Source: a virus (Duplodnaviria; Heunggongvirae; Uroviricota; Caudoviricetes). Taken from it: DNA of 16,261 nt. The translations under genes were made by a program, and so were the position numbers. The DNA is taken from the IMG/VR virus record IMGVR_UViG_2529292919_000026. The stretch is one strand, 5' to 3'. Of this stretch, positions 1 to 16,261 are shown piece by piece (the first letter of the stretch is position 1; the number at the start of each line of letters is the position of its first letter). The notes under the pieces are model-generated. The model saw only the letters and a program-made list of their open reading frames with translations, ran no database searches and was not told the origin of the DNA.

Positions 1-306
1 ATGCTGCGTACTGGTATAGAGGGATGGACAGAAAATGACATTCTTCGCTACTGCCGTCTGTCTTCTGGTCGTAACTATGCAACAGAGTTAGAACGCCAGC
101 TTGGAATCACTCTGGAGCGTATCGACGAAAAGAATCCTGATGGTATCGGAACACACCTTCGCTACCGTTTCTCCTGCCGTGGTGATGTTCTGAAAGTGAT
201 CACTCATGTTAACCATCTTGCGAACATAAATGATCACAACGGACTTTCTCAGCAGGAAATTGCCGACATTCTGAAACTCTACCCGAACGCGTTTAACGCC
301 GCCTAA
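1..306 (+). CDS. hypothetical protein (101 aa)
   Basis: Uninterrupted ORF beginning at the first base of the window (ATG) and ending 12 nt before the next gene. No recognisable motif. The window also ends exactly on a stop codon, which suggests it was cut at gene boundaries and this CDS is complete. Confidence 0.45.
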   Translation: MLRTGIEGWTENDILRYCRLSSGRNYATELERQLGITLERIDEKNPDGIGTHLRYRFSCRGDVLKVITHVNHLANINDHNGLSQQEIADILKLYPNAFNAA

Positions 307-318
307 CGGAGACTGAAA

Positions 319-1152
319 ATGAACATCGAAAAAAGCAGATTAATTTCTGAGGCCGCCCCTCATCTGAACGCCTCTCTGGGCACAATTAACGGTAATGAAT
401 TTGCCGCAATTGTCCCGGTTATTCCTGGTCATATCGGTGGGCGTGAAACCAATATTGTTAGCGCAAAAGCGTTACACAAAGCGTTGGGCGTGGGAAAAGA
501 CTTCTCTACATGGATCACTGATCGCATCTCTGAATATGACTTCACCATTGGGCACGATTACTCAGTCCATAAAACAATTTCCCCAAATTTGGGGAAAAGC
601 CCGAATGGCGCGGCTTACAGCAAGATAAAGCACTCTGGCAGACCCGGCAAAGACTATCTGTTAAGTGTCGGAATGGCGAAAGAACTGGCAATGATCGAAC
701 GCAATGATCAGGGTCGCGCTATCCGCCGTTATTTCATCCAGTGCGAGGAAGAATTACAGCGTACCGTGCCTGAAATCGCCGCCCGCTATCGTCGCCAGCT
801 AAAAGCCCGTATTAGTGCCGCAAACAACTTTAAGCCAATGTGCGATGCGCTGAATATGGCCCGTGCCGAGATGGGGAAAATGACGCAGCAACACCACTAC
901 ACAAACGAGAGCAATATGATTTCTCGTATCGTTCTTGGTGGGCTAACTGCTAAGCAGTGGGCGCGGATAAATGGCTATTCTGGCGAACCTCGCGACCATA
1001 TGAACGCAGAACAGCTTGAGCACCTCTCATATCTCGAAAGCACCAATATCACGTTAATTGATATGGGCATGGAATATGAGCAGCGCAAAGGAGAACTCAC
1101 CCGCCTGTCGCAACGCTGGCTCGCCAAGCGTCTGGAGGCGCTCAATGTCTAA
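319..1152 (+). CDS. phage antirepressor, AntA-like N-terminal domain plus KilAC/ANT-like C-terminal domain
   Basis: 277-aa ORF with GGAGAC Shine-Dalgarno 6-8 nt upstream. C-terminal segment DYLLSVGMAKELAMIERNDQGRAIRRYFIQCEEEL matches the conserved AKELAM...RRYFI.CE signature I associate with phage antirepressor C-terminal domains. N-terminal part (IVPVIPGHIGGRETNIVSAKALHKALGV) resembles AntA-type domains. Family assignment is from memory. Confidence 0.7.
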   Translation: MNIEKSRLISEAAPHLNASLGTINGNEFAAIVPVIPGHIGGRETNIVSAKALHKALGVGKDFSTWITDRISEYDFTIGHDYSVHKTISPNLGKSPNGAAYSKIKHSGRPGKDYLLSVGMAKELAMIERNDQGRAIRRYFIQCEEELQRTVPEIAARYRRQLKARISAANNFKPMCDALNMARAEMGKMTQQHHYTNESNMISRIVLGGLTAKQWARINGYSGEPRDHMNAEQLEHLSYLESTNITLIDMGMEYEQRKGELTRLSQRWLAKRLEALNV

Positions 1153-1324
1153 GCCAACAGGAACACCACAACCACAAAAACGCTACAAAGATGCCCACGG
1201 AGCACTCGTTACTGTCGAAAGCGTGTCTCACAACCGAGTGACGTTTTATCGCGACGGGTATCAATCGCCATGCGTACAACCGCTGGCGCGTTTCATGAAG
1301 GAGTTCGCGGAGGTTAACCAATGA
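1145..1324 (+). CDS. small hypothetical protein (59 aa)
   Basis: ATG at 1145 overlaps the stop codon of the antirepressor (ATGTCTAA), and the stop overlaps the next gene's start (ATGA at 1321-1324), typical translational coupling. The track's longer 1058 start lies inside the upstream gene. Confidence 0.45.
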   Translation: MSKPTGTPQPQKRYKDAHGALVTVESVSHNRVTFYRDGYQSPCVQPLARFMKEFAEVNQ

Positions 1325-2388
1325 TACCCGTCCAGAAGAAGACATTTTCACTGGCTGGTATGTCGCCAAAATCCAGCAATATGACGGCAAAGTCAGGCAT
1401 TAATACAGCAGATACAAGCAAAGTTTATCATTTGCTGGTGGTCGGAACGGATGCCTTAACCATACCAGAAATCTCGGGCGATGATATTAGCATTGAGAAG
1501 GTCAGCGGCTGCGCCAGAAAATTTCTGGTCGTAGATGATGTCTTCCGCTCGCGTAGTGACTCCACAAAAACCTTCATCCGCGCGCGTGACGTTAACGAAA
1601 TGAGCGCGATGTACTGTGCATCTGGTGCTTCCAATAGCGAGTTTTCGGAGTCCATAAAAAAGAGCTTGCCGTTATGCGGCAACACGGTTTATGGTTATAA
1701 GGCACCTCATAAAACGGGTGCCGGGATTGGCGTCCTGGTAAATCGAATGGCGACATATGACGCGCCGAGCGTCTTTTTTTATGTCGTAGGTCTGACTCAC
1801 CCATTTTTTGGGCGTTGGTGTATAATCCAGCGCCTTTGTCAATCAATGGTGGCTCAGGCAGGGGCTTCTTCGGAAGCGCCGGTATCCATTCGAGCCGGTT
1901 ACGCCAACCCTGTCTGGGCTACCACCAGCGAAATTGGCGTTTCCGGTGGTAGCGTTACATGCTATCGAATGGAGGCTGCCACATGCTGGCTACTACCCCT
2001 ACCCAAAAACCGCAATTTATCTGGATTATCGCCGCAGTTCGCCGCGATTGCCCGACAATTACCGCCAGAATTCATCATATTGCTGCCGAGTCTGAACGCG
2101 ATGCTCGCCGTTCTCTGGTGCGCGATCACGTCTGCTTTTTTGCTGGTCGTATCCGCATGGAGGTGGCACATGATTAAAACCTACGATGTGCATATGGATC
2201 CCCTCGAACGCACAAGCCAGATCATCACACTGACAGAAGTGATTAACGACATTCTGGTGAGCAACTCTCCCTCACGAGACGAAAGACTGAAGGCGTTACT
2301 CGCGATATTGGATCTCGCCGTTCGTGACGTTCATTTCCTGCTGGAAGGTGGCGAAATGCCAGTAAAAACGGGGGCAACCAATGAATAA
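1321..2388 (+). CDS. hypothetical protein (355 aa)
   Basis: 355 codons without a stop in ~50% GC DNA is unlikely by chance. Start is coupled to the preceding gene by ATGA overlap. No recognisable domain. Contains a strong internal GGAGG-N5-ATG at 2160-2172 (see findings). Confidence 0.5.
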
Positions 2389-2575
2389 CTCAATTAATAC
2401 CCCTCGCCTTACGTCCGCACTTCAATTAATCGAGCAAGCAGCGGCTGTCCTGGTTGCTGTCAGTCTTTCGGCTGAAGAAATGGACGCTACTGATGTCGTG
2501 GATGCGATTAAAGCGTGCTCATCTTTGGTTAACGATGCCCGTGCAGAGCTGGTAATTCTTGGGGGTGAAAAATGA
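2381..2575 (+). CDS. small hypothetical protein (64 aa)
   Basis: ATG overlaps the stop of the upstream gene (ATGAATAA), and its stop overlaps the next start (ATGA at 2572-2575). Confidence 0.55.
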   Translation: MNNSINTPRLTSALQLIEQAAAVLVAVSLSAEEMDATDVVDAIKACSSLVNDARAELVILGGEK

Positions 2576-2835
2576 ATATCAACTTAATTTATCGTCATCC
2601 GTGTGAGCTGGAAATTGAATCATTGCTGAGCCGTGAAGAACCATATCCAGACACATTCACTCTTGCAGATCGCACGACTGAACGGCTTACCAGAGCGCGC
2701 ACAGGTCTGGTTCATGTGATGAATGAGATTCTTCCATCGGTGGGAGGGGAACAGGCGACAGTAATCACTAGCTGGCTACAAAAAGTTACCTCTCTGATAG
2801 ATATCAGTTTAATCGATGCGGAGAGTGCGAAATGA
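2572..2835 (+). CDS. small hypothetical protein (87 aa)
   Basis: Translationally coupled on both sides by ATGA overlaps (2572-2575 and 2832-2835). Confidence 0.55.
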   Translation: MNINLIYRHPCELEIESLLSREEPYPDTFTLADRTTERLTRARTGLVHVMNEILPSVGGEQATVITSWLQKVTSLIDISLIDAESAK

Positions 2836-3053
2836 CCAACATCCAGCTCATTGAAGCGCAATGTCGCATCGAACAGGTTCAGACTGTTTTAGGGTTCTGG
2901 CTTGAAGGGGCCAGCCCCAGCAACAGAGACAAGTTAATGATTGGCGCGGTTATGTCACTGCTCAATGGCGTACCAGAAGCTATTCAGGAAGCAGACGAAT
3001 TGTTGGGCAAATATGAGTTACAGAATCATTCAGGCGAGGCGAAACATGAATAA
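2832..3053 (+). CDS. small hypothetical protein (73 aa)
   Basis: Coupled to neighbours. Stop overlaps the next start in ATGAATAA at 3047-3053. Confidence 0.55.
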   Translation: MTNIQLIEAQCRIEQVQTVLGFWLEGASPSNRDKLMIGAVMSLLNGVPEAIQEADELLGKYELQNHSGEAKHE

Positions 3054-3648
3054 TTTCTTAACTTTCCAGGCAGAAGCAACGCCTGACGGCGTAAACATCA
3101 TGCACCGCAGCAACGATGGCATGACAGAACGCGTTGAGACCGTCTCATATATTGATGCCGTAAATCGTCTGGATGCCGGGGATTATGACGATAAACCAGA
3201 TGAAGGTATGTCAATACATCTCGCTATTGCCGATGGCGGCAACCAGGGATATTTCGATTACACATCACAGCATAACGTCATTATGTGGAGATGGTTGATC
3301 GCAACAGTATTCATGCTGGAAATGAGAGAGGAAAACGGCACTGTCAGCATCATTGATGATACTGGCAATCCTTCCGAAGTGGCTGTTTATTCCAACGGCA
3401 TCGTCGCCATGCCGCTGTATCCAGTAGCAGAGCGCCTCGCTATGGCAAACAACATTGAGGGCGCGATGATAGAACGTTTTGGCATCGAGTCTGGCACAGA
3501 ACGCTCCATCATTTTCTACAGAGCCATGATGGATGTGGAACAAGGAGCACTGACTCCATTTGGTCGTGAAACGCTTGCTGAACTTCACAACAGCTTTATA
3601 GCTGAACTGAATGAAAACGGCATGCCATCGGAACCAGTGACGCACTGA
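3047..3648 (+). CDS. hypothetical protein (200 aa)
   Basis: ATG at 3047 overlaps the upstream stop. The track ORF extends to 2941, but that start lies inside the upstream gene, so the coupled ATG at 3047 is preferred. Acidic protein with no recognisable motif. Confidence 0.55.
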
Positions 3649-3658
3649 GGATGGAACC

Positions 3659-3742
3659 ATGATTACTAAAAATTTCCGACTGAATGCGCTGGCAAATAAG
3701 TATGCGTCAGCACTGTATAACCACATTACCTCCACCAGCGGC
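3659..3742 (+). pseudogene. N-terminal fragment (28 codons) of a small gene split by IS insertion
   Basis: GAGGA Shine-Dalgarno 7 nt upstream of ATG 3659. Reading frame MITKNFRLNALANKYASALYNHITSTSG runs into the IS left end. After removing the IS and one copy of the duplication the frame continues exactly into 5301-5558. Confidence 0.7.
3734..3742. repeat. left copy of 9-bp target-site duplication ACCAGCGGC
   Basis: Identical to 5292-5300. The last C is shared with the first base of the IS terminal repeat, so the junction is ambiguous by 1 nt. Confidence 0.75.
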
Positions 3743-3760
3743 TGTCTCTTATACACAAAT
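3742..3760 (+). repeat. IS left terminal inverted repeat (outside-end-like)
   Basis: CTGTCTCTTATACACAAAT, 17/19 match to Tn5 OE. Confidence 0.8.
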
Positions 3761-3906
3761 CCCCACCCGGGGATTTGTGATGTCTGTCAGTCTGCTTTAG
3801 GGGGACTCTTTCCATCCGGTAGTTTCCTTCCTCCCCGGCAGCGATTTTTTGAACTTTTTCCTCACCCGTTGATCTTCTCTTATATTTCATTTTCTTCGGG
3901 TCTGTT

Positions 3907-5280
3907 ATGGTACTTTCTGATTGTTATTCATGGGCTAACGAGCAGTTTGGACATGCCCGTCTCGGTGATCCGCGTCGTACACGACGCCTTGTGTCACTGG
4001 CCTCTTCTCTCGCTCAGCATGCAGGTCTTTCTATTGTGAAATCATCCCAGTCCACTGCTCAGGTTGAAGGTGCGTACCGCCTGATACGTAACCCGTCTGT
4101 GTCCCCGCAAGCCATTGCCGAAGCCGGATTTACCGCCACTGTAAGGGCATGTGAGGCTCATCCGCTGCTCCTCGCGCTGGAAGACACCACCACCATTAAC
4201 TTCAGTCACAGTACGGCATCTGATGACCTGGGGAATACCACCACTAACCCGAAGACGCGCGGGCTGCTGGCTCACTCTGTCCTGATGTACGCCCCCGACA
4301 GCGCCCTGCCAGTCGGTCTTATCGAACAGCAGCGCTGGAGTCGTGCCACGGACACCTACGGTGTTAAGCACCAGCGAAAAGAACGTCCCTATGAAGAAAA
4401 AGAAAGTTACCGCTGGCAGCAGGCTTCGGAGCGCATGGCCGAACGGCTGGGGGAGATACAGAAACGGGTAATCACTGTCTGTGACCGGGAAGCGGATATC
4501 TGGCATTACCTGCATTATAAAGTCAGCCACGGGCAGCGCTTCGTGGTGCGTGCAGCACAGAATCGCCGGCTGGAAGAAGCACCCGGCAAGCTCTTCGAAC
4601 TGCCGGAAGTCCTGGCAACCGCGGGAAGCCACACGCTGAATGTGATGCAAAAAGGCGGGCGGGCAGCCCGCCAGGCCCGGATGTTCATCAGTTACAGCGA
4701 AGTCAGCATAAAAAATCCCGACAACAGCGGCCAGGCGCTCCCGCTCACGTATGTCTGTTGCCGGGAGCAGGCAGAGGACGGCGCCTGCTGGCATCTGCTG
4801 ACGTCAGAAAAAGTGGCGAGTGCCGCCGATGCGCGACGTATCGTCAGCCATTACGAGCGACGCTGGCTGATAGAGGAATACCACAAGGCGTGGAAAAGTG
4901 GTGGTACATGTGTGGAATCGCTGCGAATGCAGACCCGGGATAACCTCGAGCGCATGGTGGTTATCAAGGCGTTTATCGCGGTGCGGGTGCTGGGCCTGCG
5001 GCAGGGCGGTATCAGTGAAGAAACACAAAATGACAGCTGTGAGAAAATACTGACGCCGACAGAGTGGAAACTGCTGTGGGTTAAGCTGGAAGGAAAACCG
5101 CTTCCGTCACAGATGCCGACACTGAAATGGGCCTGTCTGAAACTGGCGAAACTGGGGCGATGGCATGACAGCAAACGCACCGGTCGCCCCGGTTGGGTAG
5201 TCATGTGGGATGGCTGGTTCAGACTTCAGGATATGGTTGAGGGTTACCTGGTGATGAAGTCTCTTGATCAGGAGATCTGA
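3907..5280 (+). CDS. tnp: IS4-family DDE transposase, Tn5 Tnp-like (457 aa)
   Basis: Clear collinear similarity to Tn5 transposase: GDPRRT.RLV, EGAYR.IRNP.VS, L(A/L)(I/L)EDTT, VCDREADI, RFVVR, RW.IEE(F/Y)HKAWK(T/S)G and DNLERMV...A(V/I)R.L.LR blocks, including the catalytic D, D, E positions. Stop codon lies inside the right terminal repeat. Confidence 0.85.
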   Translation: MVLSDCYSWANEQFGHARLGDPRRTRRLVSLASSLAQHAGLSIVKSSQSTAQVEGAYRLIRNPSVSPQAIAEAGFTATVRACEAHPLLLALEDTTTINFSHSTASDDLGNTTTNPKTRGLLAHSVLMYAPDSALPVGLIEQQRWSRATDTYGVKHQRKERPYEEKESYRWQQASERMAERLGEIQKRVITVCDREADIWHYLHYKVSHGQRFVVRAAQNRRLEEAPGKLFELPEVLATAGSHTLNVMQKGGRAARQARMFISYSEVSIKNPDNSGQALPLTYVCCREQAEDGACWHLLTSEKVASAADARRIVSHYERRWLIEEYHKAWKSGGTCVESLRMQTRDNLERMVVIKAFIAVRVLGLRQGGISEETQNDSCEKILTPTEWKLLWVKLEGKPLPSQMPTLKWACLKLAKLGRWHDSKRTGRPGWVVMWDGWFRLQDMVEGYLVMKSLDQEI

Positions 5281-5291
5281 TCAAGAGACAG
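5273..5291 (-). repeat. IS right terminal inverted repeat (inside-end-type)
   Basis: Reverse complement is CTGTCTCTTGATCAGATCT, 19/19 with Tn5 IE. Confidence 0.85.
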
Positions 5292-5558
5292 ACCAGCGGC
5301 GGGGACTATTTCATGATTGATGCGGACGGAGAGGCCGTACGTGTGGAAATCGTCAATGGAGTAAAAGGCGTTCGCAGCCTGATCGATAGTTACGCACTGG
5401 CAGCCATGAAAGTGTTCTACCCGCAGTGGGAAACCGTGGGGATCGAGCTTCTTGATCGTTGCGTCACTAAGGACAGATTGACTGACGTCGGGCGTGAGAT
5501 ATGGCAAAGCATGGTTAATGACATGGGCGCAACTGTAGCGGGAGGTTCTCATGCGTGA
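5292..5558 (+). pseudogene. C-terminal fragment of the IS-split gene (the 5313-5558 track ORF is its in-frame tail)
   Basis: Starts with the right copy of the duplication ACCAGCGGC (encoding T-S-G, the same three residues that end the N-terminal fragment). Frame continues G-D-Y-F-MIDADGEAV... to TGA 5556-5558. Reconstructed intact protein would be about 113 aa. Confidence 0.7.
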
Positions 5559-5922
5559 AAATGCAGAAATGGCGCTTAGCTCCGCAATCGGAGAGCAGGT
5601 GGCAAAGATTGCTGGTGCTGTGTGGATTCATAACCTTCATTCTACTGGTGAAGAGAAAATGGCAATTCAGACGCCAGAGGGACGCACTATTACTACATCT
5701 CTGAAGCCGTCAGATGTTTGTGATCTGATTTGCGCATTCATGTACCCAGCAATGAGGACTGTCCACGGCGATAAGTGGAAACTTGCGACAACCGCTGAAT
5801 TTGATATGTGGCTAAACAATGATGGCATGCTGACTGATTACGGAATAACCAAGTGGCAGATGCTGGTTAGCCATATCGCAAACGCTATAGACCACGTGGG
5901 GTACGGTGATGCGAAACATTGA
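5551..5922 (+). CDS. hypothetical protein (123 aa)
   Basis: GGAGG at 5541-5545, five nt before ATG 5551. Start overlaps the stop of the split gene (ATGCGTGA). Its 3' end overlaps the primase start. Confidence 0.55.
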   Translation: MRENAEMALSSAIGEQVAKIAGAVWIHNLHSTGEEKMAIQTPEGRTITTSLKPSDVCDLICAFMYPAMRTVHGDKWKLATTAEFDMWLNNDGMLTDYGITKWQMLVSHIANAIDHVGYGDAKH

Positions 5923-8665
5923 TCTTATCCGTCAGGTTATCAGTGCGTCTGAAAACAACTGGCCTCATGTGCTGGGCTGCCTGAACATAAATGTCCCTGA
6001 CTCTCCGCGCCGTCATGCTCCCTGCCCTGCATGTGGGGGCAAAGATCGATTCCGGTTCGATGACAACGGGCGCGGTAGCTTCATCTGTAATCAGTGCGGC
6101 GCTGGTGATGGGCTGGATTTAATTAAACGCGTAAATAACTGCGACACAACAGAGGCGGCGCTGCTTGCCGCTGATGTTCTGGGTATTGATTACCGGACAA
6201 CGGAAACACCAGAAGCCACCAGCCAGAAACGGGAACAACTGGAAACCGAGCGCCAGCAACGCGAACAGGAGCGCCTGAAAAGGGCGGAGAAGGACGAACA
6301 ACAAAGACGGGATACGTTTTCCCGTCAGTTTGATGACATGCGCAGAAAGGCTGTAAACGGCAAATCTGATTATCTGGTTGCGAAAGGGGTAGGTGATTTT
6401 ACATTCCCCGTGTTGCCCGATGGATCTCTGTTGCTGGCGCTGGTGGATAAATCCGGCGCAGTCACAGCAGCACAGACTATTACCTCACATGGTGAAAAAA
6501 GACTCCTGACAGGTTCAGCAAAGCGGGGGGCATATCACGCCATAAACGCACCAGAAACAACACAGAGCATCTTAATCGCAGAAGGGCTGGCAACGGCATT
6601 ATCTGCCCATTTAATTCGTCCAGAGGCGCTGACAGTGGCGGCGATTGATGCCGGGAACCTGTTATATGTCGCCCAGGTACTGCGGGATAAATTTCCTTCA
6701 GCACAAATCATCATTGCTGCGGATAACGACCACAGCGAAGGAAGACAAAACACGGGGAGAATAGCAGCAGAAAAAGCAGCTTTATCTGTTTCTGGATGGG
6801 TGGCATTACCCCCGACAGGTCACAAAGCAGACTGGAATGATTACCACCAAAAACACGGCATTAAATGCGCCACAGAAGCGTTCAATAAGTCAATGTACCA
6901 ACCACAGGGTAATGGCGTGAAACAGGAGCCACAGACCATTGAGGGAAGCGATTTTAAGGTTATGGATACCGACCCACTGAAACCAAGAATAGAAAGCCGC
7001 GAGGATGGTATTTATTGGGTATCTCCGAGAGCTGACAGCCAGAGTGGAGAAATCATCAATAACGAAAGCTGGTTATGTTCTCCGTTAAGCGTTATCGGTA
7101 CTGGCAGAGACGATAAAGACCAGTATCTCATTCTTCGCTGGCTGTCGTTTGGTTCTGAAACGCCGACAACCGCTGCCATTCCACTGGCTGATATTGGTGA
7201 ACGTGAAGGATGGCGCACACTTAAAGCTGGTGGGGTAAATGTCACGACCAAAAGCAGCCTCAGAGCAATACTGGCAGACTGGCTACAACGCAGTGGCTCT
7301 CGTGAATTGTGGCGTGTTGCTCATGCCACTGGCTGGCAATGCGGAGCGTACATCATGCCTGATGGGGAAATCATCGGAACACCTGAAAATCCTGTGCTGT
7401 TCAGCGGGAGAAGCTCAGCCGCAGCCGGATATACCGTCTCAGGGAGCGCGCAAAGCTGGCGTGATAACGTGGCGCGTCTGGCCTTTGGTAACTATTCAAT
7501 GATGACCGGGATCGGCGCAGCACTGGCAGCACCATTGATTGGGCTGGTGGGCGCTGACGGGTTCGGCATTCATTTCTATGAGCAGTCGAGCGCAGGTAAG
7601 ACCACCACGGCAAACGTGGCGAGCAGCTTATACGGCAACCCTGATTTACTGCGGCTGACGTGGTACGGAACCGCGCTGGGGCTGGCAAATGAGGCCGCCG
7701 CCCACAATGACGGACTAATGCCGCTTGATGAAGTTGGTCAGGGCGCTGATCCTGTCAGCGTTTCACAGTCTGCCTATGCGTTATTTAACGGTGTAGGGAA
7801 ACTGCAAGGCGCTAAAGATGGTGGAAACCGGGATCTAAAACGCTGGCGTACAGTGGCAATCAGCACCGGAGAAATGGATTTAGAAACATTTATCGCTACT
7901 TCCGGGCGAAAAACCAAAGCCGGGCAACTGGTGCGACTGCTGAATATTCCGTTGAGTAAAGCAGTACGCTTTCACGATTACCAGAACGGAAAACAGCACG
8001 CAGACGCACTGAAAGACGCTTACCAGCATCACCATGGCGCAGCCGGGCGTGAGTGGATTAAATGGCTGGCAGACCACCAGCAACAGGCTATTAAAACTGT
8101 TCGTGATTGCGAAAGCAGATGGAGAAGCCTGATCCCACCCGATTATGGTGAGCAGGTTCACCGTGTAGCCGCGCGATTTGCCATTCTGGAGGCCGCATTG
8201 TTGTTAGGCGAGGTTGTAACAGGCTGGGATGCTCAGACATGCCGTGATGCGATACAGCACAGCTATAACGCATGGTTGCGCGAGTTCGGCACAGGTAACA
8301 AAGAGCATCAGCAGATTATTGAACAAACGGAGGCATTTCTTAATGCCTATGGGCTTAGCCGTTTTGCACCATTTCCATACAGCCCGGCAGATTTGCCCAT
8401 CAAAGATTTAGCCGGATACCGTCAGCGTGGAGAACATGACGAAAGCCCAATGATTTTCTACACATTCCCGGCCACATTTGAAAAGGAGATCGCATGTGGT
8501 TTCAACGCAAAACAGTTTGCTGAAGTGTTGAAAAAAGCCGGGATGCTAACCCCACCAAACAGCGGTCGTGGATACCAAAGAAAATCACCACGTATTCAGG
8601 GACGACAAATAAACGTTTATGTACTCAATTACCAGCCAGGAGATTATAACTCATCTGAAGAATGA
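5909..8665 (+). CDS. primase, zinc-ribbon + Toprim + DUF927/P4-alpha-like NTP-binding domain (about 918 aa)
   Basis: N-terminal CPACGGKDRFRF...FICNQCG zinc ribbon; Toprim-like acidic motifs (ILIAEGLATA, IIIAADNDHSEG); P-loop-like EQSSAGKTT near residue 555. Immediately followed by an iteron array. ATG at 5909 is preferred over the GTG at 5906 reported by the track. Confidence 0.8.
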   Translation: MRNIDLIRQVISASENNWPHVLGCLNINVPDSPRRHAPCPACGGKDRFRFDDNGRGSFICNQCGAGDGLDLIKRVNNCDTTEAALLAADVLGIDYRTTETPEATSQKREQLETERQQREQERLKRAEKDEQQRRDTFSRQFDDMRRKAVNGKSDYLVAKGVGDFTFPVLPDGSLLLALVDKSGAVTAAQTITSHGEKRLLTGSAKRGAYHAINAPETTQSILIAEGLATALSAHLIRPEALTVAAIDAGNLLYVAQVLRDKFPSAQIIIAADNDHSEGRQNTGRIAAEKAALSVSGWVALPPTGHKADWNDYHQKHGIKCATEAFNKSMYQPQGNGVKQEPQTIEGSDFKVMDTDPLKPRIESREDGIYWVSPRADSQSGEIINNESWLCSPLSVIGTGRDDKDQYLILRWLSFGSETPTTAAIPLADIGEREGWRTLKAGGVNVTTKSSLRAILADWLQRSGSRELWRVAHATGWQCGAYIMPDGEIIGTPENPVLFSGRSSAAAGYTVSGSAQSWRDNVARLAFGNYSMMTGIGAALAAPLIGLVGADGFGIHFYEQSSAGKTTTANVASSLYGNPDLLRLTWYGTALGLANEAAAHNDGLMPLDEVGQGADPVSVSQSAYALFNGVGKLQGAKDGGNRDLKRWRTVAISTGEMDLETFIATSGRKTKAGQLVRLLNIPLSKAVRFHDYQNGKQHADALKDAYQHHHGAAGREWIKWLADHQQQAIKTVRDCESRWRSLIPPDYGEQVHRVAARFAILEAALLLGEVVTGWDAQTCRDAIQHSYNAWLREFGTGNKEHQQIIEQTEAFLNAYGLSRFAPFPYSPADLPIKDLAGYRQRGEHDESPMIFYTFPATFEKEIACGFNAKQFAEVLKKAGMLTPPNSGRGYQRKSPRIQGRQINVYVLNYQPGDYNSSEE

Positions 8666-8684
8666 GCTTCTTCATGTGCGTAGA

Positions 8685-8730
8685 AAAGGTGTTGGTTCAG
8701 TTGGTTCAGTTGGTTCAATTTGTAAAGAGT
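8685..8730 (+). repeat. 46-bp segment perfectly inverted-repeated at 15899-15944
   Basis: AAAAGGTGTTGGTTCAGTTGGTTCAGTTGGTTCAATTTGTAAAGAG is the exact reverse complement of 15899-15944. Confidence 0.9.
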
Positions 8731-8802
8731 ATTGTTTTATAAGGATTTTATTCTTTTTATTGAACCAACACTGAACCAACAACACGGTATTTTGAACCAA
8801 CA
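8692..8802. promoter_or_regulatory. iteron array, candidate replication origin (copy A)
   Basis: Three tandem GTTGGTTCA 9-mers (8692-8718), an AT-rich ~43-bp spacer, then three spaced inverted copies TGAACCAAC (8762-8770, 8773-8781, 8794-8802). Sits directly 3' of the primase gene. Confidence 0.65.
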
Positions 8803-8862
8803 CAATGTGACTGAATTGATGCGCACAACACCTGGCTGGCATCAGAGAGTGTTTTACGAGAC

Positions 8863-8883
8863 TTTCGTAAAATCCTGTGTACA
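8863..8883. promoter_or_regulatory. palindromic operator-like site TTTTACGA-N5-TCGTAAAA
   Basis: 8-bp perfect inverted arms seen directly in sequence. Confidence 0.4.
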
Positions 8884-8905
8884 AGGGCGTGACGTTTTTG
8901 AAAGT

Positions 8906-8922
8906 GAGCACTACGAAATTTT
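8906..8922. promoter_or_regulatory. palindromic operator-like site CTACGAAA-T-TTTCGTAG
   Basis: 17-bp near-perfect palindrome sharing the TTTCGTA half-site with the site 25 bp upstream. Confidence 0.4.
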
Positions 8923-9122
8923 CGTAGTTCAAAAAACAGCCTCTGAGAAGTTGTTATGCCTGTTCAGCAAACCATCCGCATAGCTGATCGCGAATCAAAT
9001 TACCAATGGAGCCAGAATCAAGGGCAGAACTGAAAAGCGCCTGCCGTGAAGAGTAATGCGATACCATAAATATAGTTTTTAGAGTCCATAAAAAACCTGT
9101 CAAAACCTGACACACAGAACGA

Positions 9123-9154
9123 TGCCACCAGCTACTGAGCGGTGGCATTTTTTT
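9123..9154 (+). terminator. rho-independent terminator (orphan, no upstream + strand CDS)
   Basis: Stem TGCCACC/GGTGGCA with 11-nt loop, followed by seven T residues (9148-9154). Confidence 0.55.
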
Positions 9155-9249
9155 GTGCTATTTGTTTCATATTTTGCAATTACGATGATGAATATTGCGA
9201 TTTGTGAAACTATAATAACTGTTGTTTTATACAGTTCTAAGGGGGCGTT

Positions 9250-9411
9250 ATGGCTATTTCAGTAAATCCGGTATTGATAAGTGAGAAGCAAATGGAAGCG
9301 ATAAAGAAAATTCAGGAAGAGCAGCGTAAAAAATCAGGAATTGGAGTAGCGCCAACTCTGCATGAAATTGCACGAGGGTTAATAGATAAGGCGCTGGCAG
9401 GCTGTATGTGA
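9250..9411 (+). CDS. small hypothetical protein (53 aa), below the track's length cut-off
   Basis: AAGGGGG Shine-Dalgarno 6 nt upstream of ATG 9250; TATAAT hexamer at 9211-9216. Sequence MAISVNPVLISEKQMEAIKKIQEEQRKKSGIGVAPTLHEIARGLIDKALAGCM, possibly a small DNA-binding protein. Confidence 0.45.
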   Translation: MAISVNPVLISEKQMEAIKKIQEEQRKKSGIGVAPTLHEIARGLIDKALAGCM

Positions 9412-9427
9412 AAATGGATGGCATCGC

Positions 9428-9889
9428 ATGGAACTAAAATTTATTGATAACCCTGTGCGATTACAGGCCTTTCTTAACGAGCCAGGCAATACCGAAAATA
9501 TTGTTGAGCCGGGGCACACGTACTACATCAAGCCTGATGCGGTATATCTCGGCATCTACGAAGGATTAGTGCTGGCTGGCGTTCATGAAGTGCGTAACTT
9601 CTGGCATAGCGTTGTTGAATGCCATGCGGTGTACGACCCCGGATTCCGTGGTGAATATGCACTGCAAGGGCATCGATTATTCTGCAAATGGCTTCTCGAA
9701 AACTCACCATTCCTTAACAGCATCACCATGGTTCCTGACACCACCAAATACGGACGGGCAATTATCCGTTTGCTTGGCGCTACCCGTGTTGGTCACCTTG
9801 ATGATGCTTATATCAGATGTGGTAAACCCGTCGGCGTAACGCTTTATCAGTTAACTCGGCAACAATATAAGGAATTCAGCGAATGTTAA
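9428..9889 (+). CDS. protein at the gene-14 position of a P22-like ejection-protein cluster (153 aa)
   Basis: Assigned by position and size only: it directly precedes three coupled ejection-protein-like genes, and its stop overlaps the next start. Confidence 0.35.
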   Translation: MELKFIDNPVRLQAFLNEPGNTENIVEPGHTYYIKPDAVYLGIYEGLVLAGVHEVRNFWHSVVECHAVYDPGFRGEYALQGHRLFCKWLLENSPFLNSITMVPDTTKYGRAIIRLLGATRVGHLDDAYIRCGKPVGVTLYQLTRQQYKEFSEC

Positions 9890-10560
9890 TTACCCATATA
9901 GCTCATAAACATCTCAATCGTGCCGTATACGAAAAAGGCGGTGATGGTGGTGCCTCTAAAGCTCAGGCGAAGGCCCAGCAGCAGGCAATTGATTTGCAGC
10001 GCGAGCAGTGGAATACGGTGATGAATAATCTCAAGCCGTATGCAGAAGTCGGATTGCCTGCTTTACAACAACTGCAAGGACTGATGACTCTGGAAGGGCA
10101 GAATAAAGCCGCGAATGATTTCTTTGGTTCTGGTTTATATAAAACACAGGCAGATCAGGCCCGTTATCAGAACCTTGTCTCAGCAGAAGCTACCGGGGGG
10201 CTTGGCTCAACAGCTACCAGTAACCAGTTATCTTCCATTGCGCCCATGCTTTATAACAATTGGCTCAGTGGGCAAATGCAAAATTATGGAAACCTGCTAA
10301 ATGTCGGGATGAATGCGGCATCAGGGCAGGCAACGGCAGGGCAAAACTACGCCAATAATACCGGACAACTCTTGCAGGGGCTTGGCGCTATTCGTGCAGG
10401 TCAGGCGCAGCAGCCATCCAGTCTTGCGCGTGGTATTGGTGGGGCAGCATCAGGCGCTTTAGCGGGTGCGCAACTTGGTTCCGTTGTTCCTGGAATAGGA
10501 ACTGCGGCCGGCGCTATTGGTGGTGGGCTTATTGGTCTTGTTGGGGGGCTTGGATTCTAA
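9883..10560 (+). CDS. P22 gp7-like DNA ejection (internal virion) protein (225 aa)
   Basis: Size close to P22 gp7 (about 229 aa from memory); EKGGDGG segment near the N terminus; Gln/Ala/Gly-rich low-complexity body; glycine-zipper hydrophobic C terminus GGLIGLVGGLGF. First of three coupled genes in P22 order. Confidence 0.55.
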   Translation: MLITHIAHKHLNRAVYEKGGDGGASKAQAKAQQQAIDLQREQWNTVMNNLKPYAEVGLPALQQLQGLMTLEGQNKAANDFFGSGLYKTQADQARYQNLVSAEATGGLGSTATSNQLSSIAPMLYNNWLSGQMQNYGNLLNVGMNAASGQATAGQNYANNTGQLLQGLGAIRAGQAQQPSSLARGIGGAASGALAGAQLGSVVPGIGTAAGAIGGGLIGLVGGLGF

Positions 10561-11981
10561 TGGCGACATGGCAACTTGGCGGGCTGCCTAGCATGGCACC
10601 GCAAAATGATAATGCTCCTCGTTCTTCCGTTCCTCAGCCTGTGCAGTATCAGCAGCAGCCAAACGTAGGTTTAATGGCGCTACAGGGGCTAAGAGGCGTT
10701 GCTGAGATTAATCAGCAGGCACGTCAACAACAGCGTAAATCAGAGTTTCAGAAAGCATATGCCGGGGCTTTTGAGTCTGGAGACAGAAACAAAATGCGCA
10801 GTCTTATTTCTGAGTATCCAGAAGAATTTGAAAGCGTTCAGAAAGGGATGGGCTTTATTGATGACGACCAGAGAAATTCTATTGGTCATCTTGCGACTAG
10901 TGCTCAAATCGCATCTTCGCTCGGAACTGGGGCATTTGGAAAATTCATAGCAGATAACGAAGATGAAATGCGTCGCTTGGGAATTTCTCCTGAGTCTGTT
11001 GCCGAAATGCATGTTAATGATCCACAGGGATTCCAGCGGCTTGCTGGTAGTATGGCACTGTTTTCTCTCGGTCATGAGAAGTATTTCGATATCAAAGATC
11101 AAATGGAAGGTCGGGATATTGAGCGAGGCAGGCTGGCAGAGACAATCCGCAGCAATCAGGCTGGCGAAGCACTTCAGGCGAGAGGGCAGGATATTAGCCG
11201 AGCAAATGCGTTAACGTCAGCATATGCACCAACAGCAGCAATGCAGAATTACAATCAGTACGCTCAAATGTTAAAGGCGGATCCAGAGGGGGCGGCGGCA
11301 TTTGCGGCAGCGGCTGGAATTAATACAAACGCCAAAAAATTAATGAGTGTTAGAGAAAACGATGATGGCACTGTCACAAAATACTACACAGACGGAAGTG
11401 AAGAGCAGGGAAAACTAAACCAGCCAATATCTGGAGATGGGTTTCGTCCAATAGCTTTGCCAACAGCCCAAAAGATCATGGAAAAGTCGCCAGAAGGGGC
11501 TAAAAAAGCTGCTGGATTTGCATACAGGGTTAGGGATGCTCTTGATTCAATAGATACACTGAAAGACCAGCTTAGCCCACAGCGAGTGGCGATCATTAAT
11601 AATGCTTTGGGTAATGGGACGCTGGCTAACTTAACGCTCAGCCCAACAGAGCAGCAATACGTTGTTAATGCTAATGACGCAATAATGGCAATACTCCGTC
11701 AGGAAACAGGGGCAGCTATCGTACCTGCTGAAATGTCAAAATATTATCAAATGTATTTCCCTCAGCCTGGCGACTCCACAAAAACCATTGATACCAAGCG
11801 CCGGAAGATGGAAAACCAGTTCAATTCGCTGAAAGCTGCTTCTGGTCGAGCTTATGATGCTTTGCGGGTTATTTCAGCAGTTGACAGAGGAACGTCTTCT
11901 TCGTCGCAGACATTGCCGCAATCTGAGCAGGTATCACAGCCAGCAGCCAGCAGTAACTTTTCTTCACTATGGGGTGATTAA
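10560..11981 (+). CDS. P22 gp20-like DNA ejection protein (473 aa)
   Basis: Size close to P22 gp20 (about 471 aa from memory). Start overlaps the upstream stop (TAATGG) and the stop overlaps the next start. Confidence 0.55.
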   Translation: MATWQLGGLPSMAPQNDNAPRSSVPQPVQYQQQPNVGLMALQGLRGVAEINQQARQQQRKSEFQKAYAGAFESGDRNKMRSLISEYPEEFESVQKGMGFIDDDQRNSIGHLATSAQIASSLGTGAFGKFIADNEDEMRRLGISPESVAEMHVNDPQGFQRLAGSMALFSLGHEKYFDIKDQMEGRDIERGRLAETIRSNQAGEALQARGQDISRANALTSAYAPTAAMQNYNQYAQMLKADPEGAAAFAAAAGINTNAKKLMSVRENDDGTVTKYYTDGSEEQGKLNQPISGDGFRPIALPTAQKIMEKSPEGAKKAAGFAYRVRDALDSIDTLKDQLSPQRVAIINNALGNGTLANLTLSPTEQQYVVNANDAIMAILRQETGAAIVPAEMSKYYQMYFPQPGDSTKTIDTKRRKMENQFNSLKAASGRAYDALRVISAVDRGTSSSSQTLPQSEQVSQPAASSNFSSLWGD

Positions 11982-14086
11982 TGGCTAAAGCATGGAAAGA
12001 TGTTATCGCCTCTCCACAGTATCAGGCGTTAGCACCAGAACAAAAAGCGCAGGCTCAGGAGCAATACTTCAATGAAGTCGTTGCCCCGCAAGCCGGAGAA
12101 AGTGTAGAGCAGGCTAAGCAGGCTTTTTATGCTGCCTATCCACTACCATCAACGAATGAAATAGACCGATCCCAATCAGCAACTCAAAATATTCAACATA
12201 CATCATCTGATAATTCTCTTGCGTCAGGGTATGCAAAGTTAGCTACTCAGCAAAGAGAGGGGCTTGAGCGTTCAGCAGAACAGGGAGCCAGTCTTGGGGC
12301 TGCGATGCGCGATGCTATAACAGGCGAAAGCCGAATGACTTCAGAGATGGAGAGACTGCAAAATGTCGCCTCTGCCCCAGAATTGAACTCACTAAGCATG
12401 GATGCCCTAAAGGCTGGATGGTCCCAACTTTTCGGCTCTGACGCGTCTCAGGAAAAGATTCTTCAGGGAATGGGGGCGACATTAAGGCAGGATGAGAAGG
12501 GGAATACTATCGTTTCTCTGCCATCAGGTGATTATGCCCTGAACAAGCCGGGTTTATCACCGCAAGACCTGACTTCGTTTCTTGCTAATGCGTTGGCGTT
12601 TACACCAGCGGGCAGGGCTGGAACGGTGCTTGGTGCCATAGGAAAATCAGCAGCTACAGATTTAGCACTACAGGGAGCCACCAGCCTTGCTGGTGGAGAA
12701 GATATTGATCCGTTACAAACGGTAATTTCTGCTGGCATTGGTGGTATTGGTAAGGGGCTGGAAAATACAGCGAGTGCGGTTTCGAGGGCTGTTCGTGGTG
12801 ATATGTCGCCTGAAGCAAAGGCTGCTGTCGACTTTGCATCGGAAAGAAATCTGCCGTTAATGACCAGTGACATGCTGAAAGATAAAACCTTTATGCAGAG
12901 TCAGGCTCAGACATTAGGCGAAAGAGTTCCTTTTTTTGGAACCGGTAAGAATCGGCTGAATCAACAACAAGCACGAGAAAATTTAGTCAGAACATTTAGC
13001 GATGGTCTGGGTGGCATTTCTGATAAACAGCTTTATGAATCTGCGACTAAAGGGCAACAAAAATTCATTGAGGCAGCAGGAAAGCGATATAACCGCATAA
13101 TTGACGCTATGGGGGATACCCCTGTCGATCTCTCAAACACGGTAAAAGCTATCGACAATCAGATTGCCGTGTTAAGCCGCCCGGGCAAATCTCAGGATAG
13201 AGCCGCGGTAAAAGTCTTGCAGCAATTTAAAGACGATATCACCAGCGGACCAAATGACCTGCGCCTGGCGAGGGAAAACAGAACCGATCTTCGAAAGCGA
13301 TTTATTGCGTCATCTGACACTGTTGATAAAGATACGCTCCAGAAAGCCAGCGATATTATCTACAAGGCATATACGGCGGATATGAAAAAAGCCGTAGCCA
13401 AAAATCTTGGAGCAGACGAAGCCATTAATATGGCAAGGGTTGATCGCTCATGGTCTAAATTCAATGACATGATGGGAAGAACGCGCGTTCAAAAGGCAAT
13501 AGCCAGCGGCAAGGCCACGCCTGAGGATGTAACAAAACTCGTTTTTAGCCAAAGCCCATCAGAACGTTCTCAGCTTTACAGGCTTCTGGATGACAATGGT
13601 AGGCAAAACGCACGAGCAGCCATAGTTCAGAATGCTGTAGATAAGGCGACTGATCCGTCTGGAAATATCAGTGTTGAGAAGTTTATTAATGCGTTACACC
13701 GGAACAGGAAGCAATCAGCAACTTTCTTTAAAGGCGTACATGGGAAGGAACTGGACGGCGTTATTAAATACCTCAACGATACAAGACACGCGGCAAAAGC
13801 GAACGTTCAAAACTTAAATGGTCAGCAGCTTTATGGATTGTTAGTTGGTGGTGGCATCATAAACGCAGCAGTATTAGCGGGGATGCTAAAAACGGCTGCG
13901 TTTGTTGTTCCTGCTGCTGGTGCCGTAGGCGGAGCAGCGAAGGCATACGAAACCCCTGTTATACGAAATGCCTTGTTACGTCTGGCAAATACGCCAAAAG
14001 GTAGCACAGCATATGACAGAGCGATCAGTACGGTCACACAATCGCTCACCAGAGTCGCACAGGCATCACAAAAAGAAGCTCAATAA
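11981..14086 (+). CDS. P22 gp16-like DNA ejection protein (701 aa)
   Basis: Third coupled gene; large Ala/Gln-rich protein with hydrophobic Gly/Ala-rich segment near the C terminus (GGGIINAAVLAGMLKTAAFVVPAAGAVGGAA). Longer than P22 gp16 (about 609 aa from memory). Confidence 0.5.
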   Translation: MAKAWKDVIASPQYQALAPEQKAQAQEQYFNEVVAPQAGESVEQAKQAFYAAYPLPSTNEIDRSQSATQNIQHTSSDNSLASGYAKLATQQREGLERSAEQGASLGAAMRDAITGESRMTSEMERLQNVASAPELNSLSMDALKAGWSQLFGSDASQEKILQGMGATLRQDEKGNTIVSLPSGDYALNKPGLSPQDLTSFLANALAFTPAGRAGTVLGAIGKSAATDLALQGATSLAGGEDIDPLQTVISAGIGGIGKGLENTASAVSRAVRGDMSPEAKAAVDFASERNLPLMTSDMLKDKTFMQSQAQTLGERVPFFGTGKNRLNQQQARENLVRTFSDGLGGISDKQLYESATKGQQKFIEAAGKRYNRIIDAMGDTPVDLSNTVKAIDNQIAVLSRPGKSQDRAAVKVLQQFKDDITSGPNDLRLARENRTDLRKRFIASSDTVDKDTLQKASDIIYKAYTADMKKAVAKNLGADEAINMARVDRSWSKFNDMMGRTRVQKAIASGKATPEDVTKLVFSQSPSERSQLYRLLDDNGRQNARAAIVQNAVDKATDPSGNISVEKFINALHRNRKQSATFFKGVHGKELDGVIKYLNDTRHAAKANVQNLNGQQLYGLLVGGGIINAAVLAGMLKTAAFVVPAAGAVGGAAKAYETPVIRNALLRLANTPKGSTAYDRAISTVTQSLTRVAQASQKEAQ

Positions 14087-15258: not shown

Positions 15259-15714
15259 TTATACGCTGACCTTACAATCAATCACCGCTTTTAACTTTTC
15301 AGCATTGCTTCCCTGACGCTTCCACGCGCTGTAAATATCTTTATCCCACGCTTTACCAGCTTTTGTTTGATAGCCTGCTTCATTGATCCGTTCAGCTATC
15401 ACACGCCCATTATCAAATCCCTGTTGGATGGTATCGGCAATGATCTTTATAACTGCCGTTTCGTTATATGGTTTTGGTGGGATGTTCGGCTTTCCGGCAA
15501 TAAGCGACGCAGCGGCTTTTTCCATGCGCTCCACCAGCCCAAGCATTCGTGAATCAATAGACTTTTCCGGCTGCCCCAGCTTCATGCGAATCGCATCAAC
15601 AAGCCAAGAGGTTTTATCTCCTCCAGAAGCGAGAACAGACCGATTAAACTCATCCTGCAATTCAGATGGGATGCGGAACGCGATCAGATTAGATTTGCTC
15701 ATTGCAAAGACCAT
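15259..15714 (-). CDS. ribbon-helix-helix (Arc/Mnt/CopG-type) DNA-binding regulator with C-terminal extension
   Basis: N-terminal SNLIAFRIPSELQDEFNRSVLASGGDKTSWLVDAIRMKL fits the beta-strand/helix/helix pattern of RHH repressors (compare the FNLRWP strand of P22 Arc/Mnt). True start may be the second ATG (15702). Confidence 0.5.
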   Translation of the reverse strand: MVFAMSKSNLIAFRIPSELQDEFNRSVLASGGDKTSWLVDAIRMKLGQPEKSIDSRMLGLVERMEKAAASLIAGKPNIPPKPYNETAVIKIIADTIQQGFDNGRVIAERINEAGYQTKAGKAWDKDIYSAWKRQGSNAEKLKAVIDCKVSV

Positions 15715-15816
15715 ATCAGTGAGTAATATCCATACAGTATACCACTGTATAACACTGTTATACGCTCAAATATCAGCCAGAAAATAACAGACCAATCACA
15801 AATCTATCGCTGTGTT

Positions 15817-15937
15817 GTTGGTTCAGAGCTGGGCTGTGTTGGTTCAAAATGAGTTGATGTTGGTTCAATATTTTAGAAAAAACACAATAAAAACAACGCT
15901 CTTTACAAATTGAACCAACTGAACCAACTGAACCAAC
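15817..15937. promoter_or_regulatory. iteron array, candidate replication origin (copy B, inverted relative to copy A)
   Basis: Three spaced GTTGGTTCA 9-mers (15817-15825, 15838-15846, 15859-15867), an AT-rich spacer, then three tandem TGAACCAAC (15911-15937). Confidence 0.6.
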
Positions 15938-15944
15938 ACCTTTT
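15899..15944 (-). repeat. second copy of the 46-bp perfect inverted repeat
   Basis: Exact reverse complement of 8685-8730. Confidence 0.9.
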
Positions 15945-15973: not shown

Positions 15974-16261
15974 ATGATAAAGGACAGGAAAGCTGAAGAG
16001 CTGGAGTCAAAAGGGCTATACCGGAGAGCTGCCGCACGATGGGCAGAAGTCATGATGCTGGCAGATGGCGATAAAGAACGTGAACATGCAGCAAACAGAC
16101 GCTCTGAATGTATCCGTAAGGCGGCACGCCCACCAGCAACTACAGACAGATTCGGAGATTTAAGACAGGCAGTTAAGCGGACTCATTCGGCTCTTGGTAT
16201 GGATGAGGAAGCGAGAGGGTACTTCAGGCGTTATCGCGATAAAGATTGCCAGAGACAGTAA
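15974..16261 (+). CDS. PerC-like small transcriptional regulator (95 aa)
   Basis: N-terminal KAEELESKGLYRRAAARWAEVM resembles the conserved N-terminal signature I recall for PerC/Pch-family activators found on prophages and P4-like islands. GAGAGG Shine-Dalgarno and TATAAT at 15955-15960 upstream. Recalled from memory, not searched. Confidence 0.45.
   Translation: MIKDRKAEELESKGLYRRAAARWAEVMMLADGDKEREHAANRRSECIRKAARPPATTDRFGDLRQAVKRTHSALGMDEEARGYFRRYRDKDCQRQ

Follow-up and report, generated by a model that had tools for sequence, protein, structure and literature searches.

The pri-rep gene and two repeat modules

The window analysed here is a 16,261-nucleotide stretch of DNA recorded as a virus (Caudoviricetes) in IMG/VR (record IMGVR_UViG_2529292919_000026). 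It carries a gene for a primase-helicase, pri-rep, and two modules of short repeats (iterons), module A directly 3′ of pri-rep and module B further downstream, beside a perC-family gene. From sequence comparison we propose, with a probability of roughly 0.8, that the window is an EcCIMP1-like phage-inducible chromosomal island (PICI) and that module A (8684–8803) is its replication origin. The type of system, a Pri-Rep protein with an iteron origin as in PICIs and staphylococcal pathogenicity islands (SaPIs), is already known, and the type of island has been published (EcCIMP1). New are the origin assignment for this island family, a catalogue of repeat variants with a candidate specificity wing in the protein, and a split or duplicated two-module arrangement.

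The pri-rep gene (+ strand) ends at 8665 and starts at 5906 (GTG) or 5909 (ATG, the RefSeq start), giving a protein of 919 or 918 amino acids. The initial annotation had described a zinc-ribbon/Toprim/DUF927-type primase, and Pfam finds all three domains: Zn_Ribbon_Prim (residues 35–70), Toprim_3 (222–319) and DUF927 (366–644). The PHROG assignment is phrog_1139, DNA primase. D5_N, Pox_D5, PriCT and Rep_3 were not detected in Pri-Rep by Pfam. A Walker A regular expression gave no match to the protein; a variant motif, SSAGKT near residue 560, seems to be its P-loop. In a PDB sequence search, residues 403–814 match the replication initiator-helicase of SaPIbov1 (PDB 8tch, E = 5e-12) and, more weakly, the SCCmec helicase Cch (5dgk).

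An AlphaFold model of the C-terminal 231 residues (689–919), built on 40 homologues, shows a helical bundle followed by a strand-helix-helix-hairpin (β-H-H-β-β) domain at residues ∼ 849–909 (predicted local distance difference test score, pLDDT, 78). When the model was compared with the PDB by Foldseek, 8tch was the top match (E = 2.4e-5), 5dgk the second, and TcpK, a winged-helix protein solved on oriT DNA, the third (probability 0.99). The features of a SaPI-Rep-kind initiator-helicase are thus all found: the Pfam domains, 8tch by both sequence and fold, and a winged helix-turn-helix match in TcpK. Sequence and model together identify Pri-Rep as a predicted fusion of a primase with a DUF927 (MCM-like, SaPIbov1-Rep-type) helicase related to SaPIbov1 Rep, with residues ∼ 849–909 as a predicted winged-helix-like C-terminal domain.

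The 9-mer GTTGGTTCA occurs in 12 exact copies in the window, all confined to two clusters. Allowing up to one mismatch gives 17 matches (3.98 ± 2.07 expected), a number reached by none of 200 shuffles. Module A (+ strand) opens with a conserved core that begins AAAAGG, 18 nt past the pri-rep stop codon. Three exact 9-mers then follow head to tail on the + strand (8691–8699, 8700–8708 and 8709–8717) and three lie on the − strand (8761–8769, 8772–8780 and 8793–8801, at spacings of 11 and 21 bp). The centre between the two sets (8718–8760, 43 bp) is 83.7% A+T versus a whole-window average of 51%, which places it within the top 0.02% of all 43-bp stretches in the window; it is the presumed DNA-unwinding site. 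Exact matching therefore recovers the three tandem 9-mers, AT-rich spacer and three inverted copies of the initial annotation, with one correction: the primase was said to end 20 bp ahead of the 9-mers, and the actual distance from its stop codon to the first 9-mer is 25 nt. A scan for DnaA boxes found none in module A or module B, and a scan for sites of integration host factor (IHF) gave a single weak IHF-like match at 8740.

Module B (15815–15944, − strand) holds the other six exact copies of GTTGGTTCA, at 15817, 15838 and 15859 (+, 21-bp spacing) and at 15911, 15920 and 15929 (−, a tandem array that ends at 15937). It is the reverse complement of module A, and a 46-bp core, AAAAGGTGTTGGTTCAGTTGGTTCAGTTGGTTCAATTTGTAAAGAG, is identical between the two (15899–15944 in module B). 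The module B centre (15868–15910, 43 bp) is 79% A+T. The modules are thus inverted relative to each other, 7.1 kb apart, and flank a set of P22-like ejection-protein genes; the perC-family gene begins 30 nt past module B. Hence the '3 + 3 iteron origin' of the initial annotation describes module A well and falls short as the full extent, since a second complete inverted module lies 7.1 kb off. Only the outer repeats of each module show a conserved 9-bp tandem spacing. Those on the inner side, 11 and 21 bp apart, lie roughly on one helical face, so that the earlier suggestion of binding without helical phasing applies to the outer set and fails for the inner one. Both modules, here and in EcCIMP1, look like complete origins, and their sequence makes module B most likely a second Rep-binding and loading site.

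Island identity and relatives of the repeat layout

Among complete E. coli genomes, 163 contain chromosomal islands that match at least 80% of the window. A near-identical island of ∼ 19 kb lies between yicC and dinD in strain cq9 (NZ_CP031546, locus L001). It encodes, in order, a tyrosine integrase, an AlpA-family helix-turn-helix regulator, an AntA/B antirepressor, an Ash-family open reading frame (ORF), small ORFs, the primase, the ejection-protein genes, accessory genes and perC. This locus fits the pattern of Gram-negative PICIs, which have int, alpA and pri-rep in one direction, a size of ∼ 10–20 kb and a specific attachment (att) site. A megablast of 5800–9200 against a phage collection returned only a 38-bp match, so the element is not a deposited phage.

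EcCIMP1 is a 19,963-bp PICI of E. coli MP1 that excises, circularises and is transduced only with the P22-like phage Kapi1 present (Pick, Stadel & Raivio 2025, PMC11773190). For the comparison we took the MP1 region as locus L079. The window is 95.8% identical to it over 1–3742 and 98.8% over 5292–10720, a range that includes the replication module, and the two diverge past 10720. The order of int, alpA, antA/B, ash, small ORFs, TOPRIM + DUF927 primase, 53-aa ORF, DUF2824, gp7-like gene, ejection proteins and perC is the same in both. EcCIMP1 likewise has the 12 exact copies of GTTGGTTCA, arranged as two modules inverted to each other, the first behind the primase gene and the second (module B) adjoining perC. 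It differs in its location (at tRNA-Thr near proA, versus yicC/dinD for the cq9 copy), in being without the IS50-like insertion of the window, in the gp20 C-terminus, gp16 allele and accessory genes that follow window position 10720, and in the inner spacing of module A (21/21 bp versus 11/21 bp). On this sequence evidence we identify the window as a PICI and a close relative of EcCIMP1.

Module A as a query matched 542 of 5426 complete E. coli genomes, typically in two places per genome, and no annotated RefSeq feature underlies it among the matches listed. Matches at 60–80% identity were considered as another type of PICI; the one example examined was instead the module B belonging to the remnant of an island at dinD.

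Conservation was surveyed in 77 loci that encode relatives of the primase, mostly from Enterobacterales genera; 62 have usable downstream DNA. In 57 of the 62, a short word is repeated at least four times, beginning 22–47 nt past the stop codon. The geometry common to these loci is two or three tandem copies at 9-bp spacing, an A+T-rich centre (42–55 bp, 67–90% A+T) and three inverted copies spaced by ∼ 11 and 21 bp. The word itself varies by lineage. There are at least eight among the relatives, GTTGGTTCA being the commonest and the others including TGTTGTCTC, ACGGGTTAY, GTCGGTTCA, GGTCGGTT, AGGTCGGGT, GTGGGTTAT and ACTTATCCC; in a contig from Desulfohalobiaceae, with a protein at 31% identity, the word is GCAGGGGCA. 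Since the geometry is kept while the word changes, the array looks like a site read by a protein. In one locus, from an Erwinia metagenome-assembled genome (L061, +29 to +167), the outer side of module A carries not three but seven tandem 9-bp repeats, and the tandem array can therefore expand. In Yersinia pekkanenii (L033), three complete iteron arrays lie within 6 kb (−4555 to +1497 from the primase stop), together with an HNH-domain fusion (P0106) and an incomplete second copy of the primase C-terminus, which suggests tandem or rearranged islands.

A second module directly follows the first in ∼ 30 loci, giving 11–12 repeats within ∼ 290 bp; in ∼ 15 others, which share the split layout of EcCIMP1, module B lies 0.3–9 kb away. 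Its repeat variant is always that of module A of the same element (L041 and L062 included). Every distant module B has an A+T-rich centre of its own (43–52 bp, 69–88% A+T). The centre of an adjacent module B is G+C-rich and 34–36 bp long in ten loci and A+T-rich in seven. From this distribution, the family origin would consist of two modules between which cargo is able to sit.

Two 120-bp inverted copies with a 46-bp identical core, bracketing 7 kb of variable cargo here and 0.3–9 kb in the ∼ 15 relatives, might also be taken for the ends of a recombination unit whose cargo inverts, or is exchanged as a cassette, through the repeats. We consider this very unlikely. A synthetic query for the inversion junction was covered to at least 80% in none of 549 complete E. 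coli genomes that carry the modules, which leads us to reject module-driven inversion for the 549 genomes. Nor does the orientation of the cargo genes vary among the loci. Moreover, no invertase or resolvase gene is adjacent, and in ∼ 30 relatives the modules directly abut. Passive homologous exchange, with the modules as flanking homology, could still occur.

The repeat word changes together with the C-terminus of Pri-Rep. A locus with GTTGGTTCA (L005) and one with TGTTGTCTC (L007) encode proteins that are 100% identical over residues 359–697. Their DNA is 99% identical in the helicase core and 60–66% identical over the last ∼ 250 nt of the gene plus the origin. We then defined diagnostic columns, across 49 full-length proteins and 919 columns, as those with at least 90% conservation among GTTGGTTCA-class proteins and a different residue in every protein of the class compared. 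Against TGTTGTCTC, only six of the 919 columns are diagnostic (residues 824, 892, 893, 894, 895 and 897); for the ACGGGTTAY class there are 12, all between residues 821 and 904. In the model, the terminal hairpin has residues 892–897 (RKSPRI, encoded by 8579–8596 on the + strand) as its first strand (model strand 204–209), which is the position of the wing. Covariation and model together make these residues a candidate determinant of iteron specificity.

Proposed origin function and comparison with known systems

SaPI Rep binds iterons of 5–6 nt through a C-terminal winged-helix domain (PMC9371898, PMC7581432). The SaPI origin has 6–12 iterons just 3′ of rep, divided equally between the two sides of an A+T-rich region and opposed in direction; a pair of Rep hexamers is believed to load itself there, needing neither ATP nor a loader (PMC9371898). 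The Rep and ori of SaPIbov1 and SaPI1 go back to Ubeda et al. 2007, as cited in PMC9371898 and PMC7581432. By analogy, the window would share with the SaPI module a self-loading, MCM-like, DUF927-type helicase-initiator with a C-terminal winged helix, an origin 3′ of rep and opposed repeats. Module A does lie immediately 3′ of the rep frame, and opposed sets of short repeats (three + and three −) surround its A+T-rich centre. The window differs in that its Rep is fused to a zinc-ribbon/Toprim primase, its repeats are 9 bp rather than 5–6 nt, its host is Gram-negative and a second complete module lies at a distance. The 9-bp periodicity, earlier called unusual for iterons, is so when set against plasmid iterons and not against SaPI-class origins with their 5–6-nt iterons.

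In the E. coli PICI EcCICFT073, a fused pri-rep with two repeat sets flanking an A+T-rich region drives plasmid replication (Fillol-Salom et al. 2018, PMC6092414). By its published description it has the same pri-rep-ori layout and is likewise an int-alpA-pri-rep island with perC. EcCIMP1-like islands are, however, reported to be phylogenetically distant from PICIs of this type, and carry P22-like ejection genes in place of capsid-redirection or terS genes.

Two other classes fit less well. The marks of classical iteron plasmids (RepA, π or TrfA initiators with Rep_3 WH1-WH2 domains, 17–22-bp iterons phased at ∼ 22 bp, DnaA boxes and host DnaB loading) are not those of the window, because there is no Rep_3 domain, the opposed repeats are 9 bp long and neither module has a DnaA box. 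In the satellite phage P4, the multifunctional alpha protein combines primase and helicase, and its C-terminal domain binds the origin; short repeats of either orientation form two clusters kilobases apart, and these, ori and crr, are both required in cis and pair by looping. The work on P4 alpha with ori and crr is reportedly that of Flensburg and Calendar in 1987 and of Ziegelin and colleagues in 1993. The window resembles P4 in combining a primase-helicase with two separated repeat clusters, as well as in the island's C4 antisense RNA of the P4/P1 type and its Ash-family ORF. In contrast to P4, its helicase is DUF927/MCM-like: Pfam shows Pri-Rep not to be an alpha-type superfamily 3 primase-helicase and detects neither D5_N nor a P4-family primase C-terminal domain. 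Furthermore, some relatives lack module B in the DNA at hand and many have it right beside module A, so that a crr-like requirement for it in cis would be conjectural.

The pairing of a primase with an iteron origin that the initial annotation expected, in cis and trans, for a satellite-like element is thus supported on several sides: kinship with EcCIMP1, the similarity to SaPIbov1 Rep, the match to the published PICI/SaPI layout and its conservation in the 57 relatives. The repeat word, which shifts along with the C-terminal wing of the protein, points the same way.

We propose the following mechanism. Pri-Rep would read the 9-bp GTTGGTTCA repeats through its C-terminal winged-helix domain, with wing residues 892–897 contributing specificity. 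It would assemble on both opposed repeat sets, probably as one hexamer per side, melt the 43-bp A+T-rich centre and, needing neither DnaA nor a separate loader, load itself to act as replicative helicase; the lack of DnaA boxes in either module fits such self-loading. Priming would be carried out by its own Toprim domain and extension by a host polymerase. In the lineage of the window, the two-module origin of the family, normally adjacent, would have been split by the 7 kb of cargo.

What the split may do is a more tentative matter. It is possible, if doubtful, that the halves of a two-module origin are separable by cargo and both bind Rep, firing as two origins or pairing by looping like P4 ori/crr. 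Copy number might be set in this way, or the virion-protein genes between the modules selectively amplified, and cargo swaps between islands might use the conserved modules as flanking homology.

Several points weigh against module A as the origin or against details of this mechanism. The EcCIMP1 paper (PMC11773190) is silent on an origin and on iterons. The AlphaFold model is of moderate confidence (its pLDDT of 78 goes with a predicted template-modelling score, pTM, of 0.49), and uncertainty over how its domains are oriented to each other keeps the TM-scores to 8tch low (0.36). Some 15 relatives show module A alone in the available DNA, several of these contigs being truncated, and so module B cannot be universally essential. 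The IS50-like insertion (see below) lies 617 nt upstream of pri-rep and may have a polar effect on its expression in this copy. Finally, the covariation of wing and repeat could in part reflect physical linkage, the 3′ end of the gene and the origin being exchanged as one recombination tract, because the two adjoin. Residues 898–919 counter this last caveat: they are nearer to the origin than the wing and are not diagnostic of the TGTTGTCTC class.

The arrays could alternatively be mainly transcriptional operators, through which Rep or another island protein autoregulates or controls perC and the divergent 151-aa ORF. Their surroundings lend this some appeal. Module B sits amid a divergent pair, the 151-aa ORF (−, ending at 15714) and perC (starting at 15974); perC often directly follows an iteron module in relatives (at +176 or +352, for example), and a homologue of the 151-aa ORF usually adjoins the distant module B. 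Nevertheless, scans for σ70 consensus promoters found none in or around either module, and a 43-bp centre of 79–84% A+T with opposed repeats 3′ of rep is the signature of an origin class of which one PICI example is functionally proven. We therefore think it unlikely that regulation is their main role. On whether the repeats regulate perC as well, the promoter scans were no help either way; operator and origin roles can coexist.

If module A is the origin, a PICI family present in ∼ 10% of complete E. coli genomes gains an assigned origin and a candidate specificity determinant. Naturally occurring repeat variants, accompanied by slight differences in the Rep wing, offer a ready design for specificity swaps in helicases that load themselves. 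The split and duplication of the origin vary the PICI replicon in a way that can be tested, and mark an entry point for cargo genes. The current picture of how such islands replicate is left unchanged.

Cargo genes and other features of the island

The cargo between the modules (9428–14086, +) comprises homologues of P22 genes 14 (DUF2824), 7, 20 and 16, identified by Pfam (DUF2824, P22_gp7, Inj_translocase); PHROG assigns the 701-aa cargo protein as a DNA transfer protein/transglycosylase. Three small − strand ORFs lie in the same stretch. The large ORFs downstream of the origin had been considered as terminase or portal genes, a reading overturned when Pfam and PHROGs returned gp14, gp7, gp20 and gp16 of P22. 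These genes encode virion-internal ejection (DNA-transfer) proteins, and the EcCIMP1 paper names such genes merely as hypothetical 'DNA transfer'-like proteins (PMC11773190). The ejection-gene alleles part sharply from EcCIMP1 after 10720, within the gp20 homologue. A satellite providing a P22-like helper with ejection proteins of its own would merit study.

As the repeats flank virion-related genes, and the island has no terminase gene and must be recognised by the packaging machinery of its helper, one might read the repeats as pac-like signals for a helper terminase that packages the island into P22-like capsids. We give this hardly any credence: the repeat word covaries with the C-terminus of the island's own Rep and not with a helper gene, relatives whose cargo has no detectable P22-like homologue share the layout, and that layout is the same in kind as in proven PICI origins.

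The perC-family regulator occupies 15974–16261 (+; Pfam PerC, E = 3e-33). The 151-aa ORF (15259–15714, −) has only a weak PHROG match and is conserved across genera, with homologues in loci L017, L020, L025, L059 and L060; its start adjoins the distant module B in most loci that have one. Family searches gave no informative match for the 151-aa, 139-aa, 66-aa, 64-aa and 53-aa ORFs.

An IS50/Tn5-like insertion of 1549 bp (3743–5291) encodes a 457-aa Tn5-type transposase. It has the terminal inverted repeats CTGTCTCTT...AAGAGACAG and a 9-bp target duplication, ACCAGCGGC, at 3734–3742 and 5292–5300. It interrupts a small conserved ORF and is missing from EcCIMP1 and from most matching genomes.

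Two Rfam families score above their gathering thresholds in the window, the isrK Hfq-binding RNA (1702–1779, +, 67 bits) and the C4 antisense RNA (1842–1929, +, 79.5 bits). Both fall within the 355-aa 'Ash family' ORF (1321–2388). They suggest that the island has an antisense-RNA immunity region of the P1/P4 type, and some or all of the long Ash ORF may be non-coding. In the cq9 genome, a reverse transcriptase family gene lies between slmA and pyrE (8378–9337 of locus L001), ∼ 3 kb from the island integrase. It may be a retron and is unrelated to the origin.

The 450-bp non-coding stretch from module A to the ejection-gene operon contains two 15-bp palindromes, TACGAGACTTTCGTA (8855–8869) and TACGAAATTTTCGTA (8912–8926), 57 bp apart and of the pattern TACGA-N5-TCGTA. 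They look like operator sites for a dimeric regulator, possibly of the downstream operon.

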